A DNA stretch of 10,555 nucleotides, taken from an uncultured Fibrobacterota bacterium. GTDB lineage: Bacteria > Fibrobacterota > Chitinivibrionia > Chitinivibrionales > WJKA01. The stretch lies in NCBI GenBank assembly GCA_964571815.1, contig CAZNDN010000137.1:1-10555 (forward strand), read 5' to 3'. This document shows, piece by piece, positions 1 to 10,555 of this stretch (positions within the stretch are counted from its first letter, which is position 1; the number at the start of each line of letters is the position of its first letter). The notes under the pieces were generated by a model. It searched no databases and was not told the DNA's origin. It worked only from the letters and a program-made list of their open reading frames with translations. Made by a program: the position numbers and the translations under genes.

Positions 1-405
1 CCAAAGTGGATACCGGATTACATCAAGGTGCAGACTGGCTTTGCCTTGGATTGGGGACGGACTATGTTTTATATCTTAACGCCTGAGGCGAGAGAGTGCG
101 ATACGGTATCCCGCCGCTGCACTCCCTCAGCGGAGGTGTTGATTCCACAGCCGGGGGCGAGAACTCCGGGCTGGTACTTCCCGCCCCTTCCCGGCTTCGC
201 AAAGTTCGCCGCGGCAGGCTACACCTACGACCTGTACTCCACCAACTCGATTACGAGGACGCGCACGCCTGTCCCGGGCATGTCGAAGGGAGCACGACTC
301 AGACTAACGTTCGCTGCCTTCGGCTCTCGCGTCTCCCGGTTTCGTAGACCGAGCCGCGGCAAGCTGCCTCCTGTGTCCCTCTTTCGGGTCCTTTGAATTT
401 TACTC

Positions 406-434
406 TTGACATCCCGGGAAAAATGTTGTATATT
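406..434 (+). promoter_or_regulatory. Sigma70-type promoter for the GntR-led operon: -35 TTGACA (406-411), 17-nt spacer, -10 TATATT (429-434)
   Basis: Seen in sequence: a perfect TTGACA hexamer, a 17-nt spacer, and a TATATT hexamer (4/6 to TATAAT). It lies about 40 nt upstream of the first ATG of the regulator gene and 10 nt after the last in-frame stop of the upstream region. Confidence 0.6.
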
Positions 435-437
435 GCT

Positions 438-461
438 ATTGTACTGGTTAACCATAACAAT
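438..461 (+). promoter_or_regulatory. Putative GntR-family operator: 24-bp imperfect palindrome ATTGTact-GGTTAACC-ataACAAT, centred on a perfect GGTTAACC core
   Basis: Seen in sequence: the 8-bp core is a perfect palindrome and the flanking ATTGT/ACAAT arms are a perfect inverted repeat. The GT...AC arrangement matches the generic GntR operator pattern. The site starts 4 nt after the -10 hexamer, so it overlaps the expected transcription start and would support autorepression. Confidence 0.5.
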
Positions 462-475
462 CGAACAGTCGGACA

Positions 476-883
476 ATGACCATGGCATTCACGTTTTCAC
501 TCAACAGCTCAAGCGGGGTTCCGTACTATCGGCAGATAGTCAACCAGGTGATATTCGGCATTGCCAACGGCATGCTCAAACCCGGGCAGCGGCTCCCCAC
601 GGTTCGCCAACTGGCCGTCGACCTCCAGGTGAATCTCAATACTATTGTCAAGGCCTACAACGAACTTGAGCTTCGGGGCATTATCAACACGCAGCAGGGA
701 ACCGGAACGTTCGTGGCGGAAAGCGGCGATGAAGTCGATCCCGTGGAGAAGCAGAAGGGAATCGAGCGGGTGTGCGGGGCGTTTCTCGATGAGCTGGCCG
801 CACTGGGGGTCGGCACGACCGAGGCGATTGCCACACTGAAAACCATAGAAAGCAAACGCAGGAACACTTCACAAGGGAGTTAG
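476..883 (+). CDS. GntR-family transcriptional regulator, short YtrA-like subtype (winged HTH plus a ~50-aa C-terminal tail)
   Basis: The translation PYYRQIVNQVIFGIANGMLKPGQRLPTVRQLAVDLQVNLNTIVKAYNELELRGIINTQQGTGTFVA is a textbook GntR winged-helix HTH. The short C-terminal domain is typical of YtrA-subfamily members, which are commonly the first gene of ABC-transporter operons. An alternative start ATG lies at 482. Confidence 0.8.
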   Translation: MTMAFTFSLNSSSGVPYYRQIVNQVIFGIANGMLKPGQRLPTVRQLAVDLQVNLNTIVKAYNELELRGIINTQQGTGTFVAESGDEVDPVEKQKGIERVCGAFLDELAALGVGTTEAIATLKTIESKRRNTSQGS

Positions 884-886
884 CCA

Positions 887-1861
887 ATGGGAGCGAAAAC
901 CAGGGAAAAGGAGTACGAAGAGCGGCGGGAGTTCAACCCCGTGCTGTGGAGCGTGAGAAAACGACTGTTTGCACTTCGGCGATACCGGATCAACCTGATC
1001 CTGCTGATCGCGGCCGTGGTTCTCGGTATCGGCCCGTGGACTCCGGGCGTGTCGCCGTGGGTGCGGCTTGCCGCGGCGGCCGTGGTCGCGCTGGTTGGTG
1101 TGTCGATACGCGTGGCGTTTGAATGGGAGCGTGTGCCCGTGCTTCGGTTCGGACGTTTCATCAAGATCAAGGGTCCGGGCCTGTTTTTCCTGATTCCGGT
1201 TGTCGATGTTGCCTACGACTACGTGGACTGCCGGATCAAGGTCACGGATTTCTCGGCGGAGAAGGTACTGACTCGCGATGCGGTGCCGATATTCGTGGAT
1301 GCGATCATTTTCTGGATGATCTGGGATGCGGGCAAGGCGAAGCTCGAGGTGGAAAACTACCATATCGCCGTGCCGCTGAGCGCCAAAACCGCTCTTCGGG
1401 ACATTATCGGCAAGACCACTCTGGCGCGGCTGCTCACCGACCGCGACGAGATCGGGCAGGAGCTGCAGAAGATCCTCGATGCCAGGACCAATCCCTGGGG
1501 GATTACATCGCTGTCGGTGGAGATCAAGGACATCGTAGTGCCGCCGGAGCTTGAGGATGCGATCAGCAGGGAGGCGCAGGCCGAGCGTGAGAAGAACGCG
1601 CGGGTGATCCTGGGATCGGCCGAGATCGAGCTTTCGGAGCAATACGCGGAAGCATCGCGGCGCTACAAGGGCAACGAAGAGGCGCTGACGCTCAGGTCGC
1701 TGAACCTGCTGCTGGATGCGCTCAAGACCAAGGGGTCGATGATACTGGTGCCCTCGGAGGTGCCGCACGTGATGAACAAGGCCGTGGCTGCCGCCATGGC
1801 CAGGAATGCGCGGGGTGAGGGCGGATCGGGTGTGGACGAGGGGAATGTGACGGTGGAGTAG
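887..1861 (+). CDS. SPFH/band-7 domain membrane protein (stomatin/prohibitin/flotillin-like), with two N-terminal hydrophobic segments
   Basis: The start is 3 nt after the regulator stop, with an AAGGGAG SD at 873-879. The translation has an N-terminal membrane anchor (INLILLIAAVVLGIGPW and LAAAAVVALVGVSI). It is followed by an SPFH core (VLRFGRFIKIKGPGLFFLIPVVD...KVLTRDAVPIFVDAIIFWMIWDAGKA...) and a Glu/Ala-rich coiled-coil tail (EAQAEREKNARVILGSAEIELSEQYAEASRRY). Confidence 0.85.
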   Translation: MGAKTREKEYEERREFNPVLWSVRKRLFALRRYRINLILLIAAVVLGIGPWTPGVSPWVRLAAAAVVALVGVSIRVAFEWERVPVLRFGRFIKIKGPGLFFLIPVVDVAYDYVDCRIKVTDFSAEKVLTRDAVPIFVDAIIFWMIWDAGKAKLEVENYHIAVPLSAKTALRDIIGKTTLARLLTDRDEIGQELQKILDARTNPWGITSLSVEIKDIVVPPELEDAISREAQAEREKNARVILGSAEIELSEQYAEASRRYKGNEEALTLRSLNLLLDALKTKGSMILVPSEVPHVMNKAVAAAMARNARGEGGSGVDEGNVTVE

Positions 1862-1893
1862 TGGGAGGTGCTCGACCCTTCGACGGGTACATG

Positions 1894-1915
1894 CTGAGCC
1901 TGTCGAGGGGCTCAG
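1894..1915 (+). other. GC-rich hairpin (CTGAGCC-8 nt loop-GGCTCAG) in the 192-bp SPFH-MMPL intergenic gap; no following U-tract
   Basis: Seen in sequence: a perfect 7-bp inverted repeat about 33 nt after the SPFH stop, followed by GATGAGTCCCGC rather than a T-run. This is not a canonical intrinsic terminator. It could be an mRNA processing or stability element, or a partial attenuator. Confidence 0.3.
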
Positions 1916-2053
1916 GATGAGTCCCGCACTGTTGCTTGGGACAGGCGTAAGGGTTGCGTTGGGTCACCGCGGAGGGTGAGTGTCTGAGAGTTTTTGGAAA
2001 ACCGCAAGAGTGCTCAAACATGGCCTTGGAAACAGGGGGTAGAGGAGACAATC

Positions 2054-5002
2054 ATGCGAACGAGACTGTATAGGTGGCTGGCCGGACTGGTGACCCGTCA
2101 TCCGGGCAAGGTCCTGATCGGATGTGCGGTGATGACCGTGTTGCTGCTGGCGGCCTCCGGGCGGCTGGGCATGAAAACGCAGTTTGCCGACATGCTGCCC
2201 GAGGATATCCCTCAGATCAAGGAGTTTCTGGAGATTGTCGAAGACTACGGTTCCGAATCCACGGTCATGATTACCGTGGAGAGCAGGGACAAGGACGTGA
2301 AAGGCATGCGGGCGTGCGCCGACGATCTGGCCGGACGGCTGGAGAAGATCTCTCTGCCGAAGCCCGTCGACGAAAGCAAACTCTCGATCGGACACAAAAT
2401 CGCTCTTGCCCGGGGGCGGTCCCCATCGGACATTGCCTGGGACACACTGCAGCTTGTCAAGCGTGTCGACTACAAGCTCGACAACGAGTTTGTCGCCGAG
2501 CACGGCCTGATGATTCAGAAGACCAACGACCTGGAAAGCATGATCGATATGTTCGGGTCGCTCGGGCTTCCGGGGCTTATCCGCAATATCAACGACAATT
2601 TCGAGAAGGAGTACATCGAAGACTCCGACAATCTTACCACCCTCGACGGTGAGGGGCAGGCGGTGCAGGGGCTGGAAGGCATACGCAGGTTCCTGATGAG
2701 CATCCGGCGGTATATCGACAATCCCGACTCCGAAGAGGTGGCGCGGGCCGTGGCCGATTTTGTCACCGGACCCCGGTATTTCGTGTCGCCCGACAACAGC
2801 ATGATCCTGCTCATGCTGCAGCCGACGATCAGTTTCAATGAATTCGAAGACCTGATGTATCTGGGGTACCGTATCGACGATACGCTGGGGGTGGTCCGGG
2901 AAGCGTATCCCGAGCTTGATCTGGGCCGCACGGGCGCAATGATGGTGCAGATTGACGAAAACTACGCTATGGCAAAGGACTTCGGCTGGCCGAGCCTGAT
3001 TATCCTGGCGCTTATCCTGCTGCTGTTGATCGGCTCGTTCCGCACCTGGAAGAACCCCTTCTATTCGGTCGCTACGCTGGTTGCGGGGATCGTGTGGACC
3101 GCCGGCATCCTGGCGCTGGTGCTTCACTACCTCAATATGATGTCGGCCGGATTCGGTATCGTGCTGATCGGGCTGGGTATCGATTTCGGCATACATTTCA
3201 TCTCCGGCTACCGCGACGGGCGCGAGCAGGGGATGTCGCCGAAGGACTCGATTTTCTACATGTACACGCGGGTCGGCGCCGGTGTCTGGACCGGAGCCTT
3301 GACAACCGCAATTGTCTTCTTCACCATGCCCCTGACCCGGTTCGAGGCGTACTCGCAGATGGGTCTTGCCATGGGAATCGGAATCGTCACGGTACTGATT
3401 GCCATGATGGTGATGCTGCCGGCGCTGATCGTCTGGGACAACAAGGGCTATTCGGTTGTCGGCAAGGCGCTGCGAAGACTGGGGCTCGGTTTCGTCGTCA
3501 CGGGCTGGAACGCCGCCGGCAGAGCGATTGCCGCGGTATTCCGCCTGCCGGTGTTCGGGTGGATCAGCGGCGTGTTCCAGTTCGGGTTCCTTTCGACGAT
3601 CGGGCGCCTGATCGGGCATCCCGTGGTTGCAGTCGGCGCGCTGGCGCTTAGCGGCGTGGTGGTGTACGTGTCGATCTCCGGCGGTATGAAGATGCAGTGG
3701 GAGTACGACATGATGGAGCTGTCGGCCAAGGGCGCCCTGGGGTATGTAACCCAGGAGAAGATTATCGATCACTTCGAATTCAGCCCCGACTATGCCATGG
3801 TCAAGGCCGGCAGTATTGAGGAGTGCCGCGAGATGGTGCGGGAGTACAAGAAGATCGGCAATCGCACCGGCCTGATCGGCCAGGTCGACGCGATCACCGA
3901 GTTTCTCCCGCCCCGGGACGTGCAGGAGGCCAACGCGGAGGTGATCCGACAGTTCGCGGACACGGTGCGCGCAATGCCGATCCCCGTATCCCTGGACACC
4001 GGCGGCATGCACGAGCTTTTACGGGAGCTGGAGCGGCTGCACCGGAATATCGTCGAGATCGGCGCGCTTTCGGTGATGAGCAGCGGCGAGAACAACAAGA
4101 TCGTGCGCAAGTGCGACCGGATTGTGGGGAAGCGTGATGAAGACAGTTTCATTCTGGCCCTGGCCTCGGAAGTGGGTGGGTTGGATGAGAACACGCGGGT
4201 GATCGGCGCCTACCAGAGGATCATGGCCGGCGTGCTCAAGCGCAAACTGCTCGGCATGGCCTCGACCGACTGGGTGACGTTCGAGAGTCTTCCCCATGAT
4301 ATCAGGAAGCGGTATGTCAACCCGCGAAACGACGATCTTCTGATCAACGTCTATCCCAAGGGCTATATCTGGGATGAGAAAAACCTGAGCAAATTCAACG
4401 AGCAGACCGCACGGGTATCGGAGCGCATCACCGGCATGCCGGCCCTGATGCAACTGATGATGGGGTTGATGGCGGAGAAAGGGAGACTGGCGGTGATCTT
4501 CGGGGTGTGCGCGATCGCGGTATTCCTGCTGCTTGATTTCCGCTCGCTGTTCTACACCGTACTGGCGGTCATTCCCCTGGCGGTCGGCGCAGCCTGGATG
4601 GTCGGGTGCATGGCGATGCTGGGCATGAAACTGAGCATGGTCAATTTCATGGCGCTTCCGCTCATCATTGGAATCGGTATCGATGACGGCGTGCATGTTC
4701 TTCACCGGTATCGTATTGAAGGACGGGGTTCCATGCCCCTGGTGCTCACGTATACCGGTCGGGCCATACTGCTGACATCGCTGACCACCATGATCGGTTT
4801 CGGCTCCATGGGACTGGCATCGCATCGGGGTCTTGCGGGCCTGGGGAAGACCCTGTTTTTCGGTGTCGGCTGCTGTTTTCTCAGTTCGGTGATCGTGCTG
4901 CCGGCAATCATCACACTGTGGGAGCGAATATTCAAGGCCGGGAGGGTCCGAGCGACCGCATCGGATACACAGCGGCCGGAGCTTCACGGAAAGGAAGGTT
5001 GA
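2054..5002 (+). CDS. RND-superfamily exporter of the MMPL/COG1033 type (HpnN-like putative lipid transporter), 982 aa, 12 predicted TM helices with two large periplasmic domains
   Basis: ATG at 2054 with an AGAGGAGA SD 6-7 nt upstream. The ORF track starts at an unlikely TTG at 1994. Translation shows the RND 1+5 / 1+5 TM topology with periplasmic loops of ~250 and ~300 aa. Both TM4 and TM10 carry the conserved GxxxD-type motifs: GIVLIGLGIDFGIHFISGY and PLIIGIGIDDGVHVLHRY. Confidence 0.85.
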   Translation: MRTRLYRWLAGLVTRHPGKVLIGCAVMTVLLLAASGRLGMKTQFADMLPEDIPQIKEFLEIVEDYGSESTVMITVESRDKDVKGMRACADDLAGRLEKISLPKPVDESKLSIGHKIALARGRSPSDIAWDTLQLVKRVDYKLDNEFVAEHGLMIQKTNDLESMIDMFGSLGLPGLIRNINDNFEKEYIEDSDNLTTLDGEGQAVQGLEGIRRFLMSIRRYIDNPDSEEVARAVADFVTGPRYFVSPDNSMILLMLQPTISFNEFEDLMYLGYRIDDTLGVVREAYPELDLGRTGAMMVQIDENYAMAKDFGWPSLIILALILLLLIGSFRTWKNPFYSVATLVAGIVWTAGILALVLHYLNMMSAGFGIVLIGLGIDFGIHFISGYRDGREQGMSPKDSIFYMYTRVGAGVWTGALTTAIVFFTMPLTRFEAYSQMGLAMGIGIVTVLIAMMVMLPALIVWDNKGYSVVGKALRRLGLGFVVTGWNAAGRAIAAVFRLPVFGWISGVFQFGFLSTIGRLIGHPVVAVGALALSGVVVYVSISGGMKMQWEYDMMELSAKGALGYVTQEKIIDHFEFSPDYAMVKAGSIEECREMVREYKKIGNRTGLIGQVDAITEFLPPRDVQEANAEVIRQFADTVRAMPIPVSLDTGGMHELLRELERLHRNIVEIGALSVMSSGENNKIVRKCDRIVGKRDEDSFILALASEVGGLDENTRVIGAYQRIMAGVLKRKLLGMASTDWVTFESLPHDIRKRYVNPRNDDLLINVYPKGYIWDEKNLSKFNEQTARVSERITGMPALMQLMMGLMAEKGRLAVIFGVCAIAVFLLLDFRSLFYTVLAVIPLAVGAAWMVGCMAMLGMKLSMVNFMALPLIIGIGIDDGVHVLHRYRIEGRGSMPLVLTYTGRAILLTSLTTMIGFGSMGLASHRGLAGLGKTLFFGVGCCFLSSVIVLPAIITLWERIFKAGRVRATASDTQRPELHGKEG

Positions 5003-5004
5003 TC

Positions 5005-5220
5005 ATGTCTGATGTCGGGAACACGAACCGGTTGATGCGGTCGAAGTGCGATGGGCGCTTCTCCGCCGGCGCGGTGCGCCGCGCGCTGAGAGCGCTTTCC
5101 GAGCGGGCGTCGTCTCTTTCACCACGCGGGAACCGTCGGACGGTGAGCGCGTTCTACTGGGGTCTTCCGGAACATTGTCGCCTACCGGGCGGCGGCTTCA
5201 AGGAGGTGTATCATGATTAG
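5005..5220 (+). CDS. Possible small coupling ORF (71 aa, Arg-rich, no recognisable domain) bridging the MMPL and LolA-like genes
   Basis: ATG lies 3 nt after the MMPL stop, with a strong AAGGAAGG SD 6 nt upstream (inside the MMPL 3' end). Third-codon positions are mostly G/C, like the neighbouring genes. Its stop TAG (5218-5220) overlaps the LolA-like ATG (5213) as ATGATTAG. Weaknesses: it is a sub-ORF of the 4918..5220 ORF, there are no homology signals, and the composition (R/S/G/A) could be random GC-rich sequence. Confidence 0.3.
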   Translation: MSDVGNTNRLMRSKCDGRFSAGAVRRALRALSERASSLSPRGNRRTVSAFYWGLPEHCRLPGGGFKEVYHD

Positions 5221-5947
5221 GGCTTTGTTTCTCTCGATGCTTGCGGCGCTACCCGCGGGAGCGCTCACCGTGGATGAGATACTTGACAAGATGGAGGCCA
5301 ACGAGGAGGCGCGGACATCACGCATGGAAGCGACCATGGTGGTGTATGATGTCGCCGGCAAGGAGCGGACTTCGGAGCTTATCAGCTACGGCTGCGACAA
5401 GGGTGACAAGGGGCTCATGGAGTATGTCTCGCCGGCGCGGATCAAGGGCATGAAGATGCTGATGCTCAACGACGGGGACGATATCTGGGTGTATTTCCCC
5501 CGTACCGCACGCGTGCGCAAGATCGCATCGCACCAGAAGAAGCAGTCGGTCAACAACTCCGATTTCAGCTATGAAGACCTGTCCATGCGCGACAATCGCA
5601 AGGACTATCACTGCACGCTCGCCGGTGAAGAGACAAAAGACGGCGCGGCATGCTACAAGATTGTCATGAAGGCCAGGGACCCGGAGAAGACCTATCAGAG
5701 GATAGTCATGTGGGTGGACAAGGAAAGCTTCGTTTCCGTTGCCGCCGAGTTTTTCGATGAGGACGGGCAGTTGTGGAAGCAACTGGAGGTTGACGATGTC
5801 ACCCGGATCGGCGACTACTGGACGGCCAGGACAATCGAGATGAAGGATGTCCAGAAAGGGAGCCGCACGGTGATGAAGATGGACAAGATCGAGTATGATA
5901 TCCAGCTCGATGAAAGCATGTTCAGCGAACGGTATCTGAAGAAGTAA
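5213..5947 (+). CDS. LolA-like periplasmic protein (outer-membrane lipoprotein-sorting / LolA_like family, the kind genomically paired with MMPL exporters), with signal peptide
   Basis: AGGAGGT SD 5 nt upstream. N-terminal signal peptide MIRALFLSMLAALPAGA. The mature N-terminus LTVDEILDKMEANEEARTSRMEATMVVYD matches, by memory, the characteristic start of the LolA_like family found next to RND/MMPL genes. The rest is beta-rich, consistent with an unclosed beta-barrel carrier fold. No cysteine lipobox, so it is soluble periplasmic rather than a lipoprotein. Confidence 0.55.
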   Translation: MIRALFLSMLAALPAGALTVDEILDKMEANEEARTSRMEATMVVYDVAGKERTSELISYGCDKGDKGLMEYVSPARIKGMKMLMLNDGDDIWVYFPRTARVRKIASHQKKQSVNNSDFSYEDLSMRDNRKDYHCTLAGEETKDGAACYKIVMKARDPEKTYQRIVMWVDKESFVSVAAEFFDEDGQLWKQLEVDDVTRIGDYWTARTIEMKDVQKGSRTVMKMDKIEYDIQLDESMFSERYLKK

Positions 5948-5974
5948 ACCGCCGGGGGCGGAGGGGAGGCAGGT

Positions 5975-7282
5975 ATGAAAACCATGCTGTGGGTCGTTGT
6001 TGCGCTTTTGCCGGCGGCCGCCGGAACGGACAATCTCCGCTTCGGCGGGTATGTCGAAAACGGCACATCGGTGATGCTTGCCGACGAGGAGAGCATCTCC
6101 GATGCCGCATCGGTGCGGCTTGAAGGAGACTGGGATTTCGGCAAGCGGGGCGCTATCGAGACGCATGTCCTTCTCTCGGCGGCGCTTCAGCCGCTCGACC
6201 CGAGTATCGCGTTCCGGCGGAATTCCTTTCTTGCGGACATCATGGATGAGTTGGAGCAGGGGCTCATGGCGGAGGCAGCGGACGTGCTGGGGCAGGAACC
6301 TGTGGACACCAACGAAGTGGACTCCGCTCAGCTCCGCGAGCAGGCTCGCCTGCAGCGGAAACGGCGGAAGCAGGTGGACAATCTCCTTACCTACCTGCCC
6401 TATACATCGTTTTACCCGGTGGATCGGGTTCTTCTGGACCGGGCCTTGCTGAAGCTGTATTTCGAGGGTGCTGATTTGTATATCGGTCGCCAGACTATCG
6501 CCTGGGGCACGGGCTACGCGTTCAACCCCACGGATATCTGGAACAGGAAAAACCCTCTGGATCCCACTGCCCCCAAAGTTGGTGTCAACGCCCTGCGCGC
6601 GGAGATTCCGCTAGGCATGCTCAGCGGAATCTCCCTTGTCCTGGCCCCCGGCCCCGATTTCGATCACACGAGCGGGGGCATGCGGTTGAAAGGAAACCTG
6701 GGCGGGTTCGATCTGTCCATCTCGGGCATGCGTATCATGAATGCCGACCGGGAGCTGCTGGGGTTGCCCGAGAAATGGGCGATCGGCGCGGATATGGCCG
6801 GTCAGATCGGTGATGTGGGCGTGTGGACCGAGGCCGCGGTCAACAATCCCGTGTACGATGGCATGTCGTACACCGATTTGGATTCGTTGTACGTGCAGGC
6901 TGATGCAGGGGCGGATTACACGTTTGAGTGGGGCACGTACGTCATGCTGGAGTACTACTACAACGGCCCGGGGCGCGGCGATCCCGACGACTACGGCGTG
7001 CGGGATCTGCTGTATGTGTTCACCGGTGAAACCGCCGGCTTCGGACGTCACTACCTCATGGCCGGCACGCGGCATACCTTCGGCAATTATTACCGCGTGT
7101 CCGGTTTCGTACTGGGCAATATCAGCGATCGTTCGGCCATGCTGCTGCCCTCCATTGCCTACGATTTCTCGGACAACATGACAATAGAACTCAGCTCCCA
7201 GATCGGAATCGGCGACAAGAAGCGAACCGAGTTCGGCGCAGTGTTCGGCAACCTGATGCTGACGGTCACGGGGTATTTTTAG
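5975..7282 (+). CDS. Putative outer-membrane beta-barrel protein (435 aa), with signal peptide and C-terminal aromatic residue
   Basis: GGAGG SD 5 nt upstream. Signal peptide MKTMLWVVVALLPAAAG. The C-terminus ...FGNLMLTVTGYF ends in Phe, the OMP beta-signature. There are many alternating-hydrophobic strands with G/Y/N/D-rich turns (YYRVSGFVLGNISD, MTIELSSQIGIGD, YTFEWGTYVMLEYYYNG). It also has an unusual internal charged segment, QLREQARLQRKRRKQVDN. Family not recognised. Confidence 0.6.
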   Translation: MKTMLWVVVALLPAAAGTDNLRFGGYVENGTSVMLADEESISDAASVRLEGDWDFGKRGAIETHVLLSAALQPLDPSIAFRRNSFLADIMDELEQGLMAEAADVLGQEPVDTNEVDSAQLREQARLQRKRRKQVDNLLTYLPYTSFYPVDRVLLDRALLKLYFEGADLYIGRQTIAWGTGYAFNPTDIWNRKNPLDPTAPKVGVNALRAEIPLGMLSGISLVLAPGPDFDHTSGGMRLKGNLGGFDLSISGMRIMNADRELLGLPEKWAIGADMAGQIGDVGVWTEAAVNNPVYDGMSYTDLDSLYVQADAGADYTFEWGTYVMLEYYYNGPGRGDPDDYGVRDLLYVFTGETAGFGRHYLMAGTRHTFGNYYRVSGFVLGNISDRSAMLLPSIAYDFSDNMTIELSSQIGIGDKKRTEFGAVFGNLMLTVTGYF

Positions 7283-7324
7283 TGAAGGACAGCGTGTCTC
7301 ATCTGAAACTAGTGGGAGAATCTC

Positions 7325-8020
7325 ATGCCGACAACGCTTCAACTCAAGGCAATCACGAAGGATTTCAGCAAGGGTGAGCGCACGGTCCACGCGCTTCGGG
7401 GGGTGGATCTGACTATTGACAAAGGCGAACTCCTCGCCATAGTCGGACCTTCGGGGAGCGGCAAGACCACGCTGTTGAATATTGTCGGCTGTCTGGATAC
7501 GCCGTCGGGCGGTGAGGTGGTGTACGACGGGGCGAGGCTGGGAACCATGAAAGAGGCTGAGCTGGCGGAGTACCGCAAGAAGCATATCGCCTTCATCTTC
7601 CAGTCGTACAATCTGATTCCGGTGCTCACCGTGCGCGAGAATGTGGAGCTGCCCCTGGTGATCGAGAAGAGCGTGTCGCCGGAGGAGATGAGCAGGCGGG
7701 CCATGGCCGTGATCGAGACCGTGGGGCTGCAAGGCATGGAGGACCGTCTTCCGAGGGAACTCTCCGGCGGGCAGGAGCAGCGGGTGGCGATTGCCCGCGC
7801 GCTGGTGAAGAACCCCCTGGTGGTGCTGGCCGACGAGCCCACGGCAAATCTCGATTCGCACACGGCCGAGGATATCATGAAAGTGATGGAAGAGATGAAC
7901 CGCACTCATCGGACCACGTTCATCTTCTCCACGCACGATACCATGGTACGGGATCATGCGGCGCGGGTGGTGACGTTGCATGACGGCGGTGTGGAATCGG
8001 ACGAAAGGAAGCAGGCATGA
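7325..8020 (+). CDS. ABC transporter ATP-binding protein, LolD/MacB/FtsE subfamily
   Basis: GGGAGA SD 5 nt upstream. Walker [10 protein letters not shown]; Q-loop; signature [15 protein letters not shown]; Walker [13 protein letters not shown]; H-loop FSTHD. The short 231-aa single NBD is typical of the LolD/MacB-ATPase clade that partners with FtsX-fold permeases. Confidence 0.95.
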
Positions 8021-9270
8021 GAATGATTGCACGCATTGCGGTCAGGAATATCCTTCGCCACAAGCGCCGCACAATTACTTCGGGCATCACGATCGCCGTA
8101 GGGATGTGGTTTTACACGTTCATGGATTCGGTGATGGCCGGGCTTGACCGGGGGGGTATCGACAACATGATCGAGCTGACTTCATCGGCGGTGAAAATCC
8201 GGACCGCGGAGTACGATCGGGACAAGGAGGCGTTTCCCCTGAAGCACGGTATTCCCGACGTGGAGGCAGTGCGCGAGGAACTTACTCAGGATCCGCGTGT
8301 GAGGGGGGTTGCGCCGCGCACGCGTTTTGTGGGGCAGCTTTCCAATTACACCGAGGAAGTGCCGGTGGTGGGGACGGTGGTCGAGCCGGCGGTGGACAGC
8401 ACGGTCTTTTCGCTCACTGAATACCTGATCGGCGATTACTTCTCCGGAGACAGCCGGGGAGAGATCATTCTGGGCAGGCAGTTGGCCCGGGAGATGGGGG
8501 TTGACACGGGCGGCTACATTACGCTGTATGCGTTGACGCGGTATGAAAGTCGCAACGCCGATGAGTTCAGGGTGGTGGGGCTGCTTAACACGAGCGATCC
8601 GCGGCTCAACCGGAGTTCGGTGATGATCTCCTGCGACGCGGCCGGGGAGTTTCTCGATCTGGACGGGTTGGTGACCGAAGTCAACGTGGGGCTGGAGCGG
8701 CGGGTGAACCTGGCGGATATGAAGGCCGAAGCCCGGCGGGTGAAGGAGCGGGTCGAAGAGGCCTTTCCGGCTCTGACGGCGACCACGTTCATGGAAGCGG
8801 CCGCGAGTTTTCTGGAGCTTGCCAAAAGCAAACGCGCGTTCGGGATTGTGTTCCTGATGGTCATCCTTGTGATTGCCGGCGTAGGCATATTCAACTCCGT
8901 GCTCATGAGCGTGTACGAGCGTATCCGTGAGGTCGGCGTGCTGCGCGCCCACGGCATCAAACCGTCGGAGGTCTCGACCATGTTTGTGATGGAGGGATTC
9001 ATGACCGGCGTGTTCGGCTCGGTGCTGGGGTTGATCATGGGCGTGGCGACCAATGTGGTGCTCATCACCTACGGCTATCCGATCGACAAGATTGCCGGGG
9101 ATATCGCGATGGAGGGTTTCCCTTACTGGGGCACGATATATGGTGAGTGGAATGTCGGGACGCTGCTGTTCCTGCTCGTGTTCGGCATTCTGACGGCCAC
9201 GATAGCCGGGATCATCCCGGCGCGGAAAGCCGGAAAAATGGAGGTAACGCATGCGCTTCGGTTTGTATGA
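8017..9270 (+). CDS. ABC transporter permease, FtsX/MacB fold (LolC/LolE-like): N-terminal TM1, ~230-aa periplasmic domain, three C-terminal TM helices
   Basis: Its ATG overlaps the ATPase stop as ATGA, indicating translational coupling, with an AAGGAAG SD 5 nt upstream. The N-terminus [33 protein letters not shown] is the LolC/E-type start. The C-terminal TM block [21 protein letters not shown]... is the FtsX signature region. Confidence 0.9.
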
Positions 9271-9302
9271 GCATGCAAAACGCGCAATCTGTTGTTCATG
9301 TG

Positions 9303-9326
9303 CACGAGTACGAGTACGAGCACGAG
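9303..9326 (+). repeat. Tandem hexamer repeat (CACGAG TACGAG TACGAG CACGAG) in the 80-bp gap between the two permease genes
   Basis: Seen in sequence: 4 x YACGAG. A mini-ORF (ATG 9267 to TAA 9347, 26 aa, [26 protein letters not shown]) reads the repeat as HEYEYEHE. It has no convincing SD, and its ATG overlaps the upstream permease stop. Confidence 0.5.
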
Positions 9327-9350
9327 GACTATTCCGGACAGGACTAACGT

Positions 9351-10555
9351 ATGTGGTATTTTCTGAAGCTTGCGCTTCGTAACCTTCGCCGCAACAGGCG
9401 TCGGTCTTTGCTGGCCGTGTTGTCGGTGTCGCTGGCGATTACTTTCATCGTGTTTCTTCAGGGCATGATCGGCGGGTTCATGGGTTCGCTGGTGCGCAAT
9501 TACACGCGCAGTGAAACCGGTCATGTCCGGATTGCGACCCGGGATTTCGTGGACAAAATACGTTTCTATCCGGTGACCGAGAATATCGAGAATCCGCAAT
9601 CGATTATCGAGACGGTGCGGAGCGATCCGCGGATCGCGGAGCACGTGGAGATAGTCACGGAGCGGACTAATTTCGGGGTGCTTCTGAGCCACCACGGCAA
9701 CAACCGGAACGCGGTGGCCCTGGCCGGCGATCCGGAGACCGAACGGGACCTACTGCTTCTGCACAAGTCCATTCTTCCGGGCGGGCGCTATATCCAGGGT
9801 GAACGTGAGACGATTATGGGGGCGGCGCTGGCCGAGGCGCTTGATTACGAGGTTGGCGACACGGTGAAAGTCATGGCACAGGGAAGCGACTATGCGCTTC
9901 ATCTTCGAAAATTGGCGATTGTGGGCCTGTTCGAATCGGGACTCAGGGAGATGGATGAGCGCATTTTTCAGATGTCGCTCAGTGATGCCAGGGAGCTGCT
10001 GCGTATGCGCACGGCGACTCAGCAGATTGTTATCATGCTTGACGATTATCATCGTGCCGGCGCGGTTGCCGGGGCGTTGCAAAGCGCAATCGGCGACACG
10101 ACGCTGTCGATTCAGTCGTGGAGAGACGCGGGCATATACGGCGACTACGTCACCATGGCCTCGAACGTGTACGGGATCATCTACCTGGTGATTGCGCTGC
10201 TGGGAACGTTTATTATCGGCAATATCATGATGATGGTGGTGCTGGAGCGGCGGCGGGAGATCGGTGTGCTCAAGTCAATGGGCTTCTCGCGTCGTGGGAT
10301 CCTGGTTTTGTTCGTAATGGAAGGCTTGCTGCTGGGGCTGGCCGGAAGTCTGGCCGGCGTAATCGGCGGGACTGGGGTGTCGCTGTATTTTCATGTTTTC
10401 GGCCTTGACTTCACCAGCGCCCTCAGCTCGGTAAGCATGCCCATGGACAACGTGGTATACACCACGATCGAAGTCGGCGGTCTGATTCAGGCGCTTGTTC
10501 TGGGAACAATCGTTGCGGGCGTGGTCTCCTTGATCCCGTCATGGCAGGCCGCGAG
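9351..10555 (+). CDS. Second FtsX/MacB-fold ABC permease (LolC/LolE-like paralogue), 3'-partial: 401 codons seen and no stop within the window
   Basis: AGGA SD 7 nt upstream. It is absent from the ORF track only because it runs off the window. Translation starts MWYFLKLALRNLRRNRRRSLLAVLSVSLAITFIVFLQGMIGGF (TM1). A periplasmic domain follows, then the FtsX signature block IIYLVIALLGTFIIGNIMMMVVLERRREIGVLKSMGFSRRGILVLFVMEGLLLGLAGSLAG. No internal stops up to position 10553. Confidence 0.9.
   Translation, partial: MWYFLKLALRNLRRNRRRSLLAVLSVSLAITFIVFLQGMIGGFMGSLVRNYTRSETGHVRIATRDFVDKIRFYPVTENIENPQSIIETVRSDPRIAEHVEIVTERTNFGVLLSHHGNNRNAVALAGDPETERDLLLLHKSILPGGRYIQGERETIMGAALAEALDYEVGDTVKVMAQGSDYALHLRKLAIVGLFESGLREMDERIFQMSLSDARELLRMRTATQQIVIMLDDYHRAGAVAGALQSAIGDTTLSIQSWRDAGIYGDYVTMASNVYGIIYLVIALLGTFIIGNIMMMVVLERRREIGVLKSMGFSRRGILVLFVMEGLLLGLAGSLAGVIGGTGVSLYFHVFGLDFTSALSSVSMPMDNVVYTTIEVGGLIQALVLGTIVAGVVSLIPSWQAA

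Follow-up and report, generated by a model that had tools for sequence, protein, structure and literature searches.

Genes for proteins of the DUF1302, DUF1329, BNR and resistance-nodulation-division (RND; COG1033) families form a cluster in proteobacteria, of which AmeABCD of Castellaniella defragrans is one example and in which an HAE3-type RND pump, a protein of the LolA superfamily and a barrel are encoded together. The four kinds of genes are cofit in Shewanella, Kangiella and Pseudomonas, and the export of a cell-envelope component has been proposed for them (bioRxiv 072470); deletion of AmeABCD lowers monoterpene tolerance and raises the accumulation and influx of Nile Red (PMC6394551), and in Pseudomonas putida the DUF1302/DUF1329 and RND genes stand under a LuxR-type regulator. 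The LolCDE-LolA-LolB pathway combines a heterodimeric pair of FtsX/MacB_PCD permeases and a separate ATPase with a LolA-fold carrier, and LolA3 has been treated as an orphan Lol paralogue, its RND/MMPL context going unmentioned (PMC13103446, PMC11885536). In the Borrelia BBJ23-BBJ29 cluster, genes for a MacB-like type VII ATP-binding cassette (ABC) transporter, a LolA-like protein and an outer-membrane barrel occur together (PMC13078400). Here we compare these systems with a locus that fills most of a 10,555-bp stretch of DNA from an uncultured Fibrobacterota bacterium (GenBank assembly GCA_964571815.1); the stretch, referred to below as the window, is one whole contig (CAZNDN010000137.1), and the locus on it is predicted to be an operon for carrier-mediated transport across the cell envelope.

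Eight co-directional open reading frames (ORFs) on the forward strand fill the window from position 476 to the contig end, and the count of eight is a truncated one, set by the place at which the contig stops within the second FtsX permease gene (FtsX2). The layout that a first-pass annotation of this DNA had given, with all genes on a single strand, junctions of 3, 27 and 42 nucleotides (nt), a 4-bp ATGA overlap and long gaps of 192, 210 and 80 bp, was exactly reproduced from our ORF calls, and scans against Pfam and NCBIfam recovered every domain that it had assigned (GntR, Band_7, MMPL, LolA_like, ABC_tran and two FtsX plus MacB_PCD). What did not survive comparison with other contigs is its core claim, that two energisers, an MMPL pump and a LolCDE-like ABC transporter, feed one carrier and one barrel. 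Sister contigs (L085, plus L086-L088, other samples) are 87-94% identical to the window in nucleotide sequence from position 398 onward, and in L085 the gene order GntR-Band_7-MMPL-LolA_like-barrel-ABC-FtsX-FtsX continues with genes for another LolA_like protein (LolA_like', 246 residues) and a 380-residue protein. The L085 orthologue of FtsX2 is complete at 412 residues; the two proteins encoded after it are paralogues, LolA_like' of the window carrier (32% identity, E 1e-39; PF17131 at 4e-53) and the 380-residue protein (barrel') of the window barrel (32% over 184 residues, E 6e-16). A second carrier and barrel are likewise encoded 3' of the ABC block in L086. Because both paralogues adjoin FtsX2 in L085, the ABC transporter would own a dedicated carrier and barrel, and the design with two energisers, one carrier and one barrel would be an artefact of the contig end. 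The locus appears to comprise ten genes, namely those for a GntR-family regulator, a stomatin-like protein, a first module of MMPL pump, carrier and barrel, and a second module of ABC ATPase, two FtsX permeases, carrier' and barrel'. Our favoured reading, to which we assign a probability of about 0.6, is that these genes form a repressor-controlled operon with two parallel modules for the carrier-mediated export of hydrophobic cargo; what doubt remains attaches almost entirely to the cargo and the direction of transport, not to the architecture.

One could picture the locus as one integrated machine, with the MMPL pump and the LolCDE-like ABC transporter both loading a shared LolA_like carrier that serves one barrel. 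This picture would suit the window as it stands, which has one carrier gene and one barrel gene lying between the two energisers and one promoter and operator for all of the genes. We nevertheless regard it as very improbable. The window is cut inside FtsX2, and the sister contig has a dedicated carrier and barrel next; in the independent locus L006 a LolA'-barrel' pair of its own comes directly after the ABC block; both modules are found alone elsewhere; and the ABC-linked LolA_like proteins fall apart from the MMPL-linked ones in a neighbour-joining (NJ) tree, a rough one of only three sequences. The ABC-linked barrels were not monophyletic by NJ analysis, and we claim no support for co-evolution of barrel and energiser.

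The separate existence of the two modules was evident from other genomes. A profile search of species-representative genomes with the barrel family returned >418 relatives, and the window proteins were run by tblastn on the best 80 loci; an exhaustive profile search brought the barrel family to 6,757 cluster representatives, 3,765 of them at <=1e-10. The trio of MMPL, LolA_like and barrel genes is complete in 67 of the 80 loci, in the order MMPL-LolA-barrel or LolA-barrel-MMPL, and the eight loci with neither an MMPL nor an ABC match are, every one of them, cut by a contig end. The loci are distributed over the Fibrobacterota, Delongbacteria, Raymondbacteria, KSB1, Aminicenantes, Zixibacteria, Marinimicrobia, Calditrichota, Ignavibacteria, Bacteroidota, Desulfobacterales and Elusimicrobia. 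ABC and FtsX genes adjoin a barrel gene of the window family in only 4/80, in line with the earlier remark that MMPL/LolA_like pairs normally occur without an ABC partner. Three of these four are stand-alone LolA_like-FtsX-FtsX-ABC-barrel modules of Rhodothermales-like genomes (L066, L073 and L078; L073 is cut by its contig end, leaving only FtsX-ABC-barrel visible). A metagenome scan seeded with ABC-linked barrels yielded 10 loci with LolA' and barrel' orthologous to those of L085, most of them truncated by contig ends. The whole order ABC-FtsX-FtsX-LolA'-barrel' is present in four metagenome loci (L094, L097, L098 and L100), and the Rhodothermales-type order recurs in ~7 further metagenome contigs, which brings the stand-alone ABC module to ~17 metagenome contigs and two gene orders. 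The ABC genes of L097 and L100 have a TetR gene as their direct neighbour, with MMPL, GntR and Band_7 genes all missing from the vicinity. The conserved unit would accordingly seem to be an energiser with a carrier and a barrel, existing in RND-driven and ABC-driven forms, and the ABC module may be viewed as an energiser-swapped variant of the trio.

The two modules appear to be adjacent only in the window lineage and, rearranged, in L006; a search for the full synteny, whose recurrence the first-pass annotation had named as a test, found it in the immediate lineage (L085-L088) and in that one rearranged locus. L006 (1-11344) has the order MMPL ... GntR-Band_7-ABC-FtsX-FtsX-LolA'-barrel'-LolA-barrel, with a 73-codon MMPL remnant (70% identity) between barrel' and LolA, which points to insertion of the ABC block into an MMPL trio or to a rearrangement of the locus. 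It may be asked whether two functionally unrelated transporter operons merely lie side by side in the window, the ABC block having a promoter of its own that escaped recognition. Six other loci, of the Chitinispirillia type, have the otherwise syntenic series GntR-Band7-MMPL-LolA-barrel and lack the ABC block, stand-alone ABC modules come with their own TetR gene, and a promoter-like site with 10/12 positions lies just inside the ABC gene (7416-7443). That site, however, is downstream of the ABC start codon; the gap between the barrel and ABC genes is only 42 nt and holds no terminator, and no regulator gene precedes the ABC block here. Moreover, the window lineage and the independent, rearranged L006 agree in having the linked modules preceded by this GntR-Band_7 pair and operator. 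Incidental adjacency is for these reasons an improbable explanation, and we retain the reading of a single operon with two modules. The features of the window are collected in Table 1.

Table 1. Predicted features of the 10,555-bp window, in order of position
Feature	Position	Strand	Basis or remark
Sigma70-type promoter, TTGACA-17 nt-TATATT	406..434	+	11/12 consensus positions; conserved in 9 loci
Palindromic operator candidate, ATTGTACTGGTTAACCATAACAAT	438..461		Inverted repeat directly after the -10 box
GntR-family regulator, YtrA type, 135 residues	476..883	+	PF00392, 7e-15
Stomatin-type SPFH/Band_7 membrane protein	887..1861	+	PF01145, 2e-31
192-bp spacer with one interrupted 98-bp repeat unit	1862..2053		Comparison with L085
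MMPL/RND inner-membrane transporter, HAE3-like; putative energiser of module 1	2054..5002	+	PF03176, 2e-32
Soluble periplasmic LolA_like carrier, LolA3 type; module 1	5213..5947	+	PF17131, 2e-60
18-stranded outer-membrane beta-barrel, remote DUF1302 relative; module 1	5975..7282	+	Predicted fold, profile-profile comparison
ABC ATPase, LolD/MacB type; module 2	7325..8020	+	PF00005, 8e-36
FtsX/MacB_PCD permease 1; module 2	8017..9270	+	Pfam
GTACGA/GCACGA hexamer run within the 80-bp spacer	9296..9332		Sequence
FtsX/MacB_PCD permease 2; module 2	9351..10555	+	Pfam; ~11 codons missing at the contig end

The pump of module 1 (start taken as the ATG at 2054, with a GGAGGAG ribosome-binding site; the ORF opens at a TTG at 1994) has, by hydropathy, two transmembrane bundles and two periplasmic loops of ~270 residues each, a GxGxDxGxH motif in each half (residues 373 and 873) and intact RND Asp motifs, in keeping with the conserved acidic residues that the branch has in TM4 and TM10. 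Its best NCBIfam match is HpnN (TIGR03480), at 311 bits against a cut-off of 752, and the cut-offs of HAE3 (TIGR00921, 211 vs 352) and NF052374 (161 vs 1100) are missed as well; the closest solved relative is again HpnN (5khn, 8e-28), to which only the C-terminal bundle aligns well. The protein is a divergent RND member of the MMPL/HAE3 branch and not an HpnN. The hopanoid transporter HpnN is the nearest RND protein of solved structure and moves a lipid from the inner membrane in the direction of the outer one, but it operates without a dedicated carrier or barrel (PMC6394551). A role in hopanoid transport, as for HpnN, or in sterol transport, as for BstA, was considered and rejected, the scores being far under the cut-offs and no biosynthesis genes being present.

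The carrier of module 1 has a signal peptide that lacks a lipobox Cys, as in soluble periplasmic proteins, and besides PF17131 it matches DUF1329 secondarily (3e-11; 43.6 bits against a cut-off of 23.1). It is not a LolA equivalog (TIGR00547, 22.8 vs 112; Pfam LolA PF03548, 17.9 vs 23.6). The closest solved relative, at 2e-33 across the whole mature protein, is LolA3 of Porphyromonas gingivalis (PGN0947; 9tp6), which with its Flavobacterium johnsoniae counterpart (Fjoh_0605) shares solubility and a type I signal peptide with the window carrier, at ~28-29% identity by tblastn. LolA3-type proteins (P0101-P0220) are 72-82% identical to each other across Porphyromonas, Bacteroides, Draconibacterium and Maribellus, a degree of conservation that is striking given that no deletion phenotype has been reported.

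According to its structure model the barrel protein, of 435 residues, has an 18-stranded porin-like fold, and it carries a signal peptide and a C-terminal aromatic beta-signal; in its predicted fold it agrees with the 18-stranded monomeric outer-membrane barrels of the OprD/Occ, AlgE and Wzi class. The protein itself has no direct Pfam match, and Pfam scans of 27 and then 41 members of its family gave no consistent family, with only 2/41 matching DUF1302 (PF06980), weakly. The relationship to DUF1302-type barrels is visible only by profile-profile comparison: a BLASTP comparison of the window barrel with a DUF1302-type barrel from Bacteroides was not significant, whereas hhalign of the barrel family against the DUF1302-type partners of Bacteroidales LolA3 gave a probability of 97% (E 6e-11, 332 columns; 90% with a narrower first profile), and a GRQxIxWG motif is common to the two groups. 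The window family is thus likely to be remotely homologous to the DUF1302-type barrels. In the Fibrobacterota barrels strand 3 is followed by an insert of ~60 residues that is predicted to be helical (residues ~85-143, window 6227-6403; predicted local distance difference test score, pLDDT, 60-74). Because relatives from other phyla align only from ~residue 150 onward, this insert is possibly lineage-specific, and it may represent a docking or plug element.

Both of the two Bacteroidales LolA3 loci that we examined contain the trio of MMPL, LolA3 and DUF1302 genes, in the form TetR-MMPL-x-methyltransferase-LolA3-DUF1302 (411 residues) in Porphyromonas macacae and MMPL-LolA3-DUF1302 (420 residues) in Bacteroides zoogleoformans. 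The genes between MMPL and LolA3 in P. macacae (L089, 4552-13556) encode a 136-residue protein and an S-adenosylmethionine-dependent methyltransferase, and 3' of this trio lie two genes for type IV (ABC_membrane) ABC exporters, which could be a further example of an RND module associated with an ABC system. Since the barrel profile of the window family aligns with the DUF1302-type partners of LolA3, the trio can be tied to the proteobacterial cluster introduced above, and module 1 appears to be the counterpart, in the Fibrobacterota and the wider Fibrobacteres-Chlorobi-Bacteroidetes (FCB) group, of the AmeABCD-type DUF1302/DUF1329/RND cluster; the LolA-superfamily component beside an RND gene that characterizes that cluster is found in 67/80 loci. 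The view that the locus is not of a described kind has therefore to be given up, as it corresponds in kind to this cluster. Both the cluster and the window-type trios are often found near genes for the metabolism of hydrophobic compounds and with a local regulator. There are also differences: the window carrier is of the PF17131/LolA3 form of ~245 residues, compared with ~450 for DUF1329; the window barrel, with ~430 residues, 18 predicted strands and no direct Pfam DUF1302 match, contrasts with the ~600 residues of DUF1302; and the window comes from a Fibrobacterota host, with GntR and stomatin genes and a second, ABC-driven copy alongside. The idea that Treponema pallidum TP0786-TP0790 join ABC, LolA_like and RND genes proved wrong, TP0784-0786 having been modelled as LptC, LptA and LptB; TP0790 has been modelled as an AcrB-like RND pump and is the only RND gene named in that paper. 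From the gene numbering, TP0790 presumably adjoins TP0789, the Pfam namesake of LolA_like.

In module 2, the ABC ATPase has intact Walker A, signature, Walker B and H-loop motifs and scores 223 bits with LolD (TIGR02211; cut-off 307.75), and the two FtsX permeases score 117 and 130 with lolCE (TIGR02212; cut-off 362.45); the nearest solved relatives of permease 1 are YtrF (3e-18), LolF (8e-18) and LolE (2e-15). FtsX, MacB_PCD and ATPase components are also those of a pump of the MacAB-TolC type, but neither the window nor L085 contains a gene for an HlyD/membrane-fusion protein (MFP) or an outer-membrane efflux protein (OEP), and the partners of this MacB-type ABC transporter are instead a LolA_like protein and a predicted 18-stranded barrel. 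The nearest published analogue of the whole module seems to be the Borrelia BBJ23-29 cluster, described in silico, which differs in that its barrel is an Omp85 protein (BamA/TamA-like) and not an 18-stranded porin-like one, in that its permease is a homodimer and tetratricopeptide-repeat (TPR) proteins are present, and in that it is plasmid-borne and has no RND module or GntR and stomatin genes.

For the mechanism of module 2 the hand-off from LolCDE to LolA might serve as the best working analogy, and the likeness of the parts invites the question of whether the locus is itself a paralogous Lol pathway, in which the ABC transporter extracts a subset of lipoproteins, the LolA_like proteins act as their chaperones and the barrels either take the place of LolB or flip these lipoproteins to the cell surface. 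LolD, LolCE and LolE are indeed among the best NCBIfam or solved-structure matches of the ABC components, the carrier has the fold of the LolA superfamily, and the Borrelia cluster was proposed to handle lipoproteins or another non-polar ligand (PMC13078400). All of the window proteins nonetheless stay under the Lol equivalog cut-offs (LolD 223 vs 308, LolCE 117-130 vs 362, LolA 23 vs 112), no LolB-like gene is present in the locus, where the outer-membrane partner is a beta-barrel and not a lipoprotein such as LolB, and the P. gingivalis LolA3 lacks the diagnostic Arg of LolA and Leu of LolB and hardly binds LolB (PMC13103446). In F. johnsoniae a lipoprotein reporter continues to be displayed on the cell surface even in a mutant that lacks every LolA and LolB homologue, lolA3 among them (PMC11885536). 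The commonest energiser in the family is an RND pump, a kind of transporter that is not known to move lipoproteins. Control by TetR or GntR proteins, furthermore, fits an inducible function and not a housekeeping one, and the patchy distribution of the module and its predicted repressor-controlled operon set it apart from the Lol pathway. A paralogous Lol pathway consequently appears improbable to us, and export of other hydrophobic cargo by two parallel modules remains the preferred reading.

The expectation of a single sigma70-like promoter and operator in front of the genes was borne out, and both elements are conserved in nine related loci. The promoter is followed by a palindrome, TGTACTGGTTAACCATAACAAT, at 440-461, which occurs once in the window and for which no copies are expected from shuffled sequences. 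In an alignment of the regions 5' of the GntR gene from 9 loci, which encode proteins of 50-85% identity, no variation was seen in the -35 box, the TATA or the TGTA...ACAAT half-sites, and the flanks had diverged, so that the alignment appears to be a phylogenetic footprint of a real promoter and operator. The conserved palindrome abuts the -10 box and the transporter genes lie downstream; we infer that the GntR protein binds the palindrome, and repression of the operon by it is predicted.

The GntR protein has 135 residues, of which 18-80 are spanned by PF00392, so that very little follows the winged helix-turn-helix domain on the C-terminal side. Among solved structures the nearest relatives are Listeria regulators of 121-134 residues, and in NCBIfam Rv1152 and PmtR match best, both under their equivalog cut-offs. 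The short protein and these matches agree with the assignment to the YtrA type that had been made on first reading, the size being that of the YtrA subfamily. In Bacillus subtilis the ytr operon, including YtrF, is under YtrA control. The ytr ABC operon and other YtrA-type pairs resemble the window in having the gene for a short GntR regulator first and an ABC transporter with an FtsX-type permease, YtrF being the best solved match of the window FtsX1 and PmtR and Rv1152 those of its regulator in NCBIfam. These pairs belong to Gram-positive hosts and are thus without the periplasmic carrier or barrel of the window, and the window regulator scores below the cut-offs of the YtrA-type families (PmtR, Rv1152).

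The pair of GntR and Band_7 genes is confined, by clustering of neighbours in the 80 loci, to those of the Chitinispirillia type, and there the Band_7 gene is always paired with the GntR gene. Its product, with an N-terminal hydrophobic segment (residues 27-72), matches the solved chains of stomatin (6e-39), QmcA (2e-28) and HflK (2e-9), and is an SPFH protein with a predicted N-terminal anchor that is nearest to stomatin rather than to HflK/C or flotillin. In ~20 loci a different gene cluster lies directly 5' of the trio, called TetR from the one member tested (L003, TetR_N), and in Aminicenantes-type loci a LuxR/MalT-like regulator replaces TetR. Five loci (L035, L042, L046, L056 and L074) have genes for such a LuxR/MalT-like regulator of ~920 residues and for a conserved 78-residue protein before LolA-barrel-MMPL.

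The mechanism that we envisage is the following. The GntR protein would repress transcription at the conserved palindrome by the promoter, until a ligand or an envelope signal releases it. Each of the two inner-membrane energisers, a proton-driven HAE3-like pump in module 1 and an ATP-driven type VII (MacB/LolCDE-like) ABC transporter in module 2, would then pick a hydrophobic or amphiphilic molecule from the membrane or the periplasm and pass it into the hydrophobic cavity of its cognate LolA-fold carrier, by analogy with LolCDE and LolA or with HpnN-type export. The carrier might dock on the cognate barrel, which would insert the cargo in the outer membrane or release it outside, and the stomatin-like protein might organize or stabilize the inner-membrane components.

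As to the cargo, our best guess is fatty-acyl or terpenoid-like hydrophobic compounds, handled for protective efflux or lipid homeostasis. We favour inducible efflux or lipid homeostasis over dedicated biosynthetic export because the regulators are as a rule local one-component repressors (TetR, GntR or LuxR-type), the neighbourhoods are varied and no biosynthetic genes are conserved. In a Fibrobacteria metagenome-assembled genome (MAG; L003/L016, 5686-21293) the series TetR-MMPL-LolA_like-barrel is continued, without a change of strand, by a full beta-oxidation set that consists of genes for acyl-CoA synthetase, electron-transfer flavoprotein (ETF) beta and alpha, an FeS oxidoreductase, 3-hydroxyacyl-CoA dehydrogenase/enoyl-CoA hydratase and thiolase, neighbours that offer a hint at a fatty-acyl cargo. 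Because of this set in one MAG, and of data from Pseudomonas and Thalassolituus, a fatty-acyl type of cargo, and even its uptake, stay in play. If the system instead served to acquire hydrophobic nutrients (long-chain fatty acids, esters or alkanes, for example), the compound would enter through the barrel and be ferried inward by the carrier. RND/MMPL and type VII ABC transporters are, however, mechanistically exporters or extractors, and the nearest solved relatives here are HpnN and LolCDE; the increased dye accumulation and lowered tolerance that follow AmeABCD deletion amount to an efflux phenotype; and the beta-oxidation genes adjoin the trio in only one lineage of the 80 loci. We consider uptake unlikely, and export the preferred direction.

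Several observations weigh against an export operon with two modules. The carrier' and barrel' of the window genome itself we infer from the sister contig, and no BNR/Ycf48-like beta-propeller gene, a component of the proteobacterial cluster, is present in the window by Pfam and NCBIfam; none was seen either among neighbours with listed Pfam families, the recurrent neighbour clusters of the 80 loci being unannotated. P. putida mutants in the DUF1302/DUF1329 and RND/BNR genes are defective on Tween 20 and butyl stearate, and in Thalassolituus oleivorans an MMPL-LolA fusion and an adjacent porin-like protein (TOL_3187/3188) are induced on C28 alkane, 42-fold or exclusively (PMC6304351); both sets of data can be read as uptake. 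Finally, deletion of lolA3 in F. johnsoniae gave no phenotype (PMC11885536).

The annotated absence of a convincing terminator from the gaps stands: terminator-like sites are not enriched in the window (11, with 7.1 +/- 2.9 expected), a single weak one lies in a gap (5092-5110), and none of the intergenic gaps of the window contains a promoter-like site. Nor did an Rfam search of the window and the L085 upstream region, at the gathering cut-off and at E<=1, reveal an RNA family in the gaps or in 1-397. The long gaps appear not to be conserved features, because the corresponding junctions in Chitinispirillum alkaliphilum are 21 bp or overlapping (21 bp between Band_7 and MMPL) and the gaps of L085 are inflated by repeats. 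In L085 the Band_7-MMPL spacer (4517-4778) carries a 98-bp unit in 2.7 tandem copies that are 97% identical. The window spacer, which has this unit once and interrupted, with a fold z-score of -2.5, has no promoter or terminator match, and the 98-bp unit may be an intergenic repeat that can move or expand. For the gap at 5003-5212 the predicted folding does not exceed that of shuffled sequence (z -0.3). The hexamer microsatellite between the two FtsX genes has ~5 copies in the window and ~30 in L085 (12192-12369), so that its copy number differs between close relatives, and an 80-residue ORF called between the L085 FtsX genes was rejected as a gene since it consists of this microsatellite. Window 1-397 is not homologous to L085, identity starting only at 398, 8 bp before the -35 box, from which it follows that what lies upstream of the predicted operon differs between two relatives of ~90% identity. 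This GC-rich segment has no Rfam match, and its frame +1, open from the contig edge to 396, has a translation that is not protein-like.

Taken as a whole, the overall interpretation with which the analysis began holds in its parts list, its co-directional and operon-like layout, its regulator and its carrier-mediated trans-envelope trafficking, and fails in the hybrid machine and in the claim of an undescribed system. The correction removes a reading induced by truncation: there would be no hybrid machine with two motors and one carrier. Relative to the literature examined, what appear to be new are the ABC-driven module of carrier and barrel, the tandem occurrence of ABC and RND versions under a YtrA-type repressor with a stomatin, and the tie between LolA3 and the MMPL/DUF1302 trios.

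A further possibility, which we rate as unlikely, is that the LolA3-type carrier and the DUF1302-like barrel constitute an energiser-agnostic route across the periplasm to the outer membrane that evolution has plugged into either an RND pump or a type VII ABC transporter, the two versions being co-expressed here for two components of one surface structure, for example a lipid and its lipidated or glycosylated partner. If this were true, the locus would specify a dedicated pathway for outer-membrane or surface lipid assembly in the Fibrobacterota or the FCB group, and not efflux. Apart from this possibility, the conservation of promoter, operator and YtrA-type repressor provides a direct experimental handle on the cargo, by way of the inducer. 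The coupling of the same carrier and barrel pair to two mechanistically different energisers offers a natural comparison for the loading and unloading of LolA-fold carriers. More broadly, the locus links the "orphan" LolA3 of the Bacteroidota, a multi-phylum barrel family for which there is no Pfam model and the proteobacterial DUF1302/DUF1329/RND cluster, which were treated separately in the literature examined.

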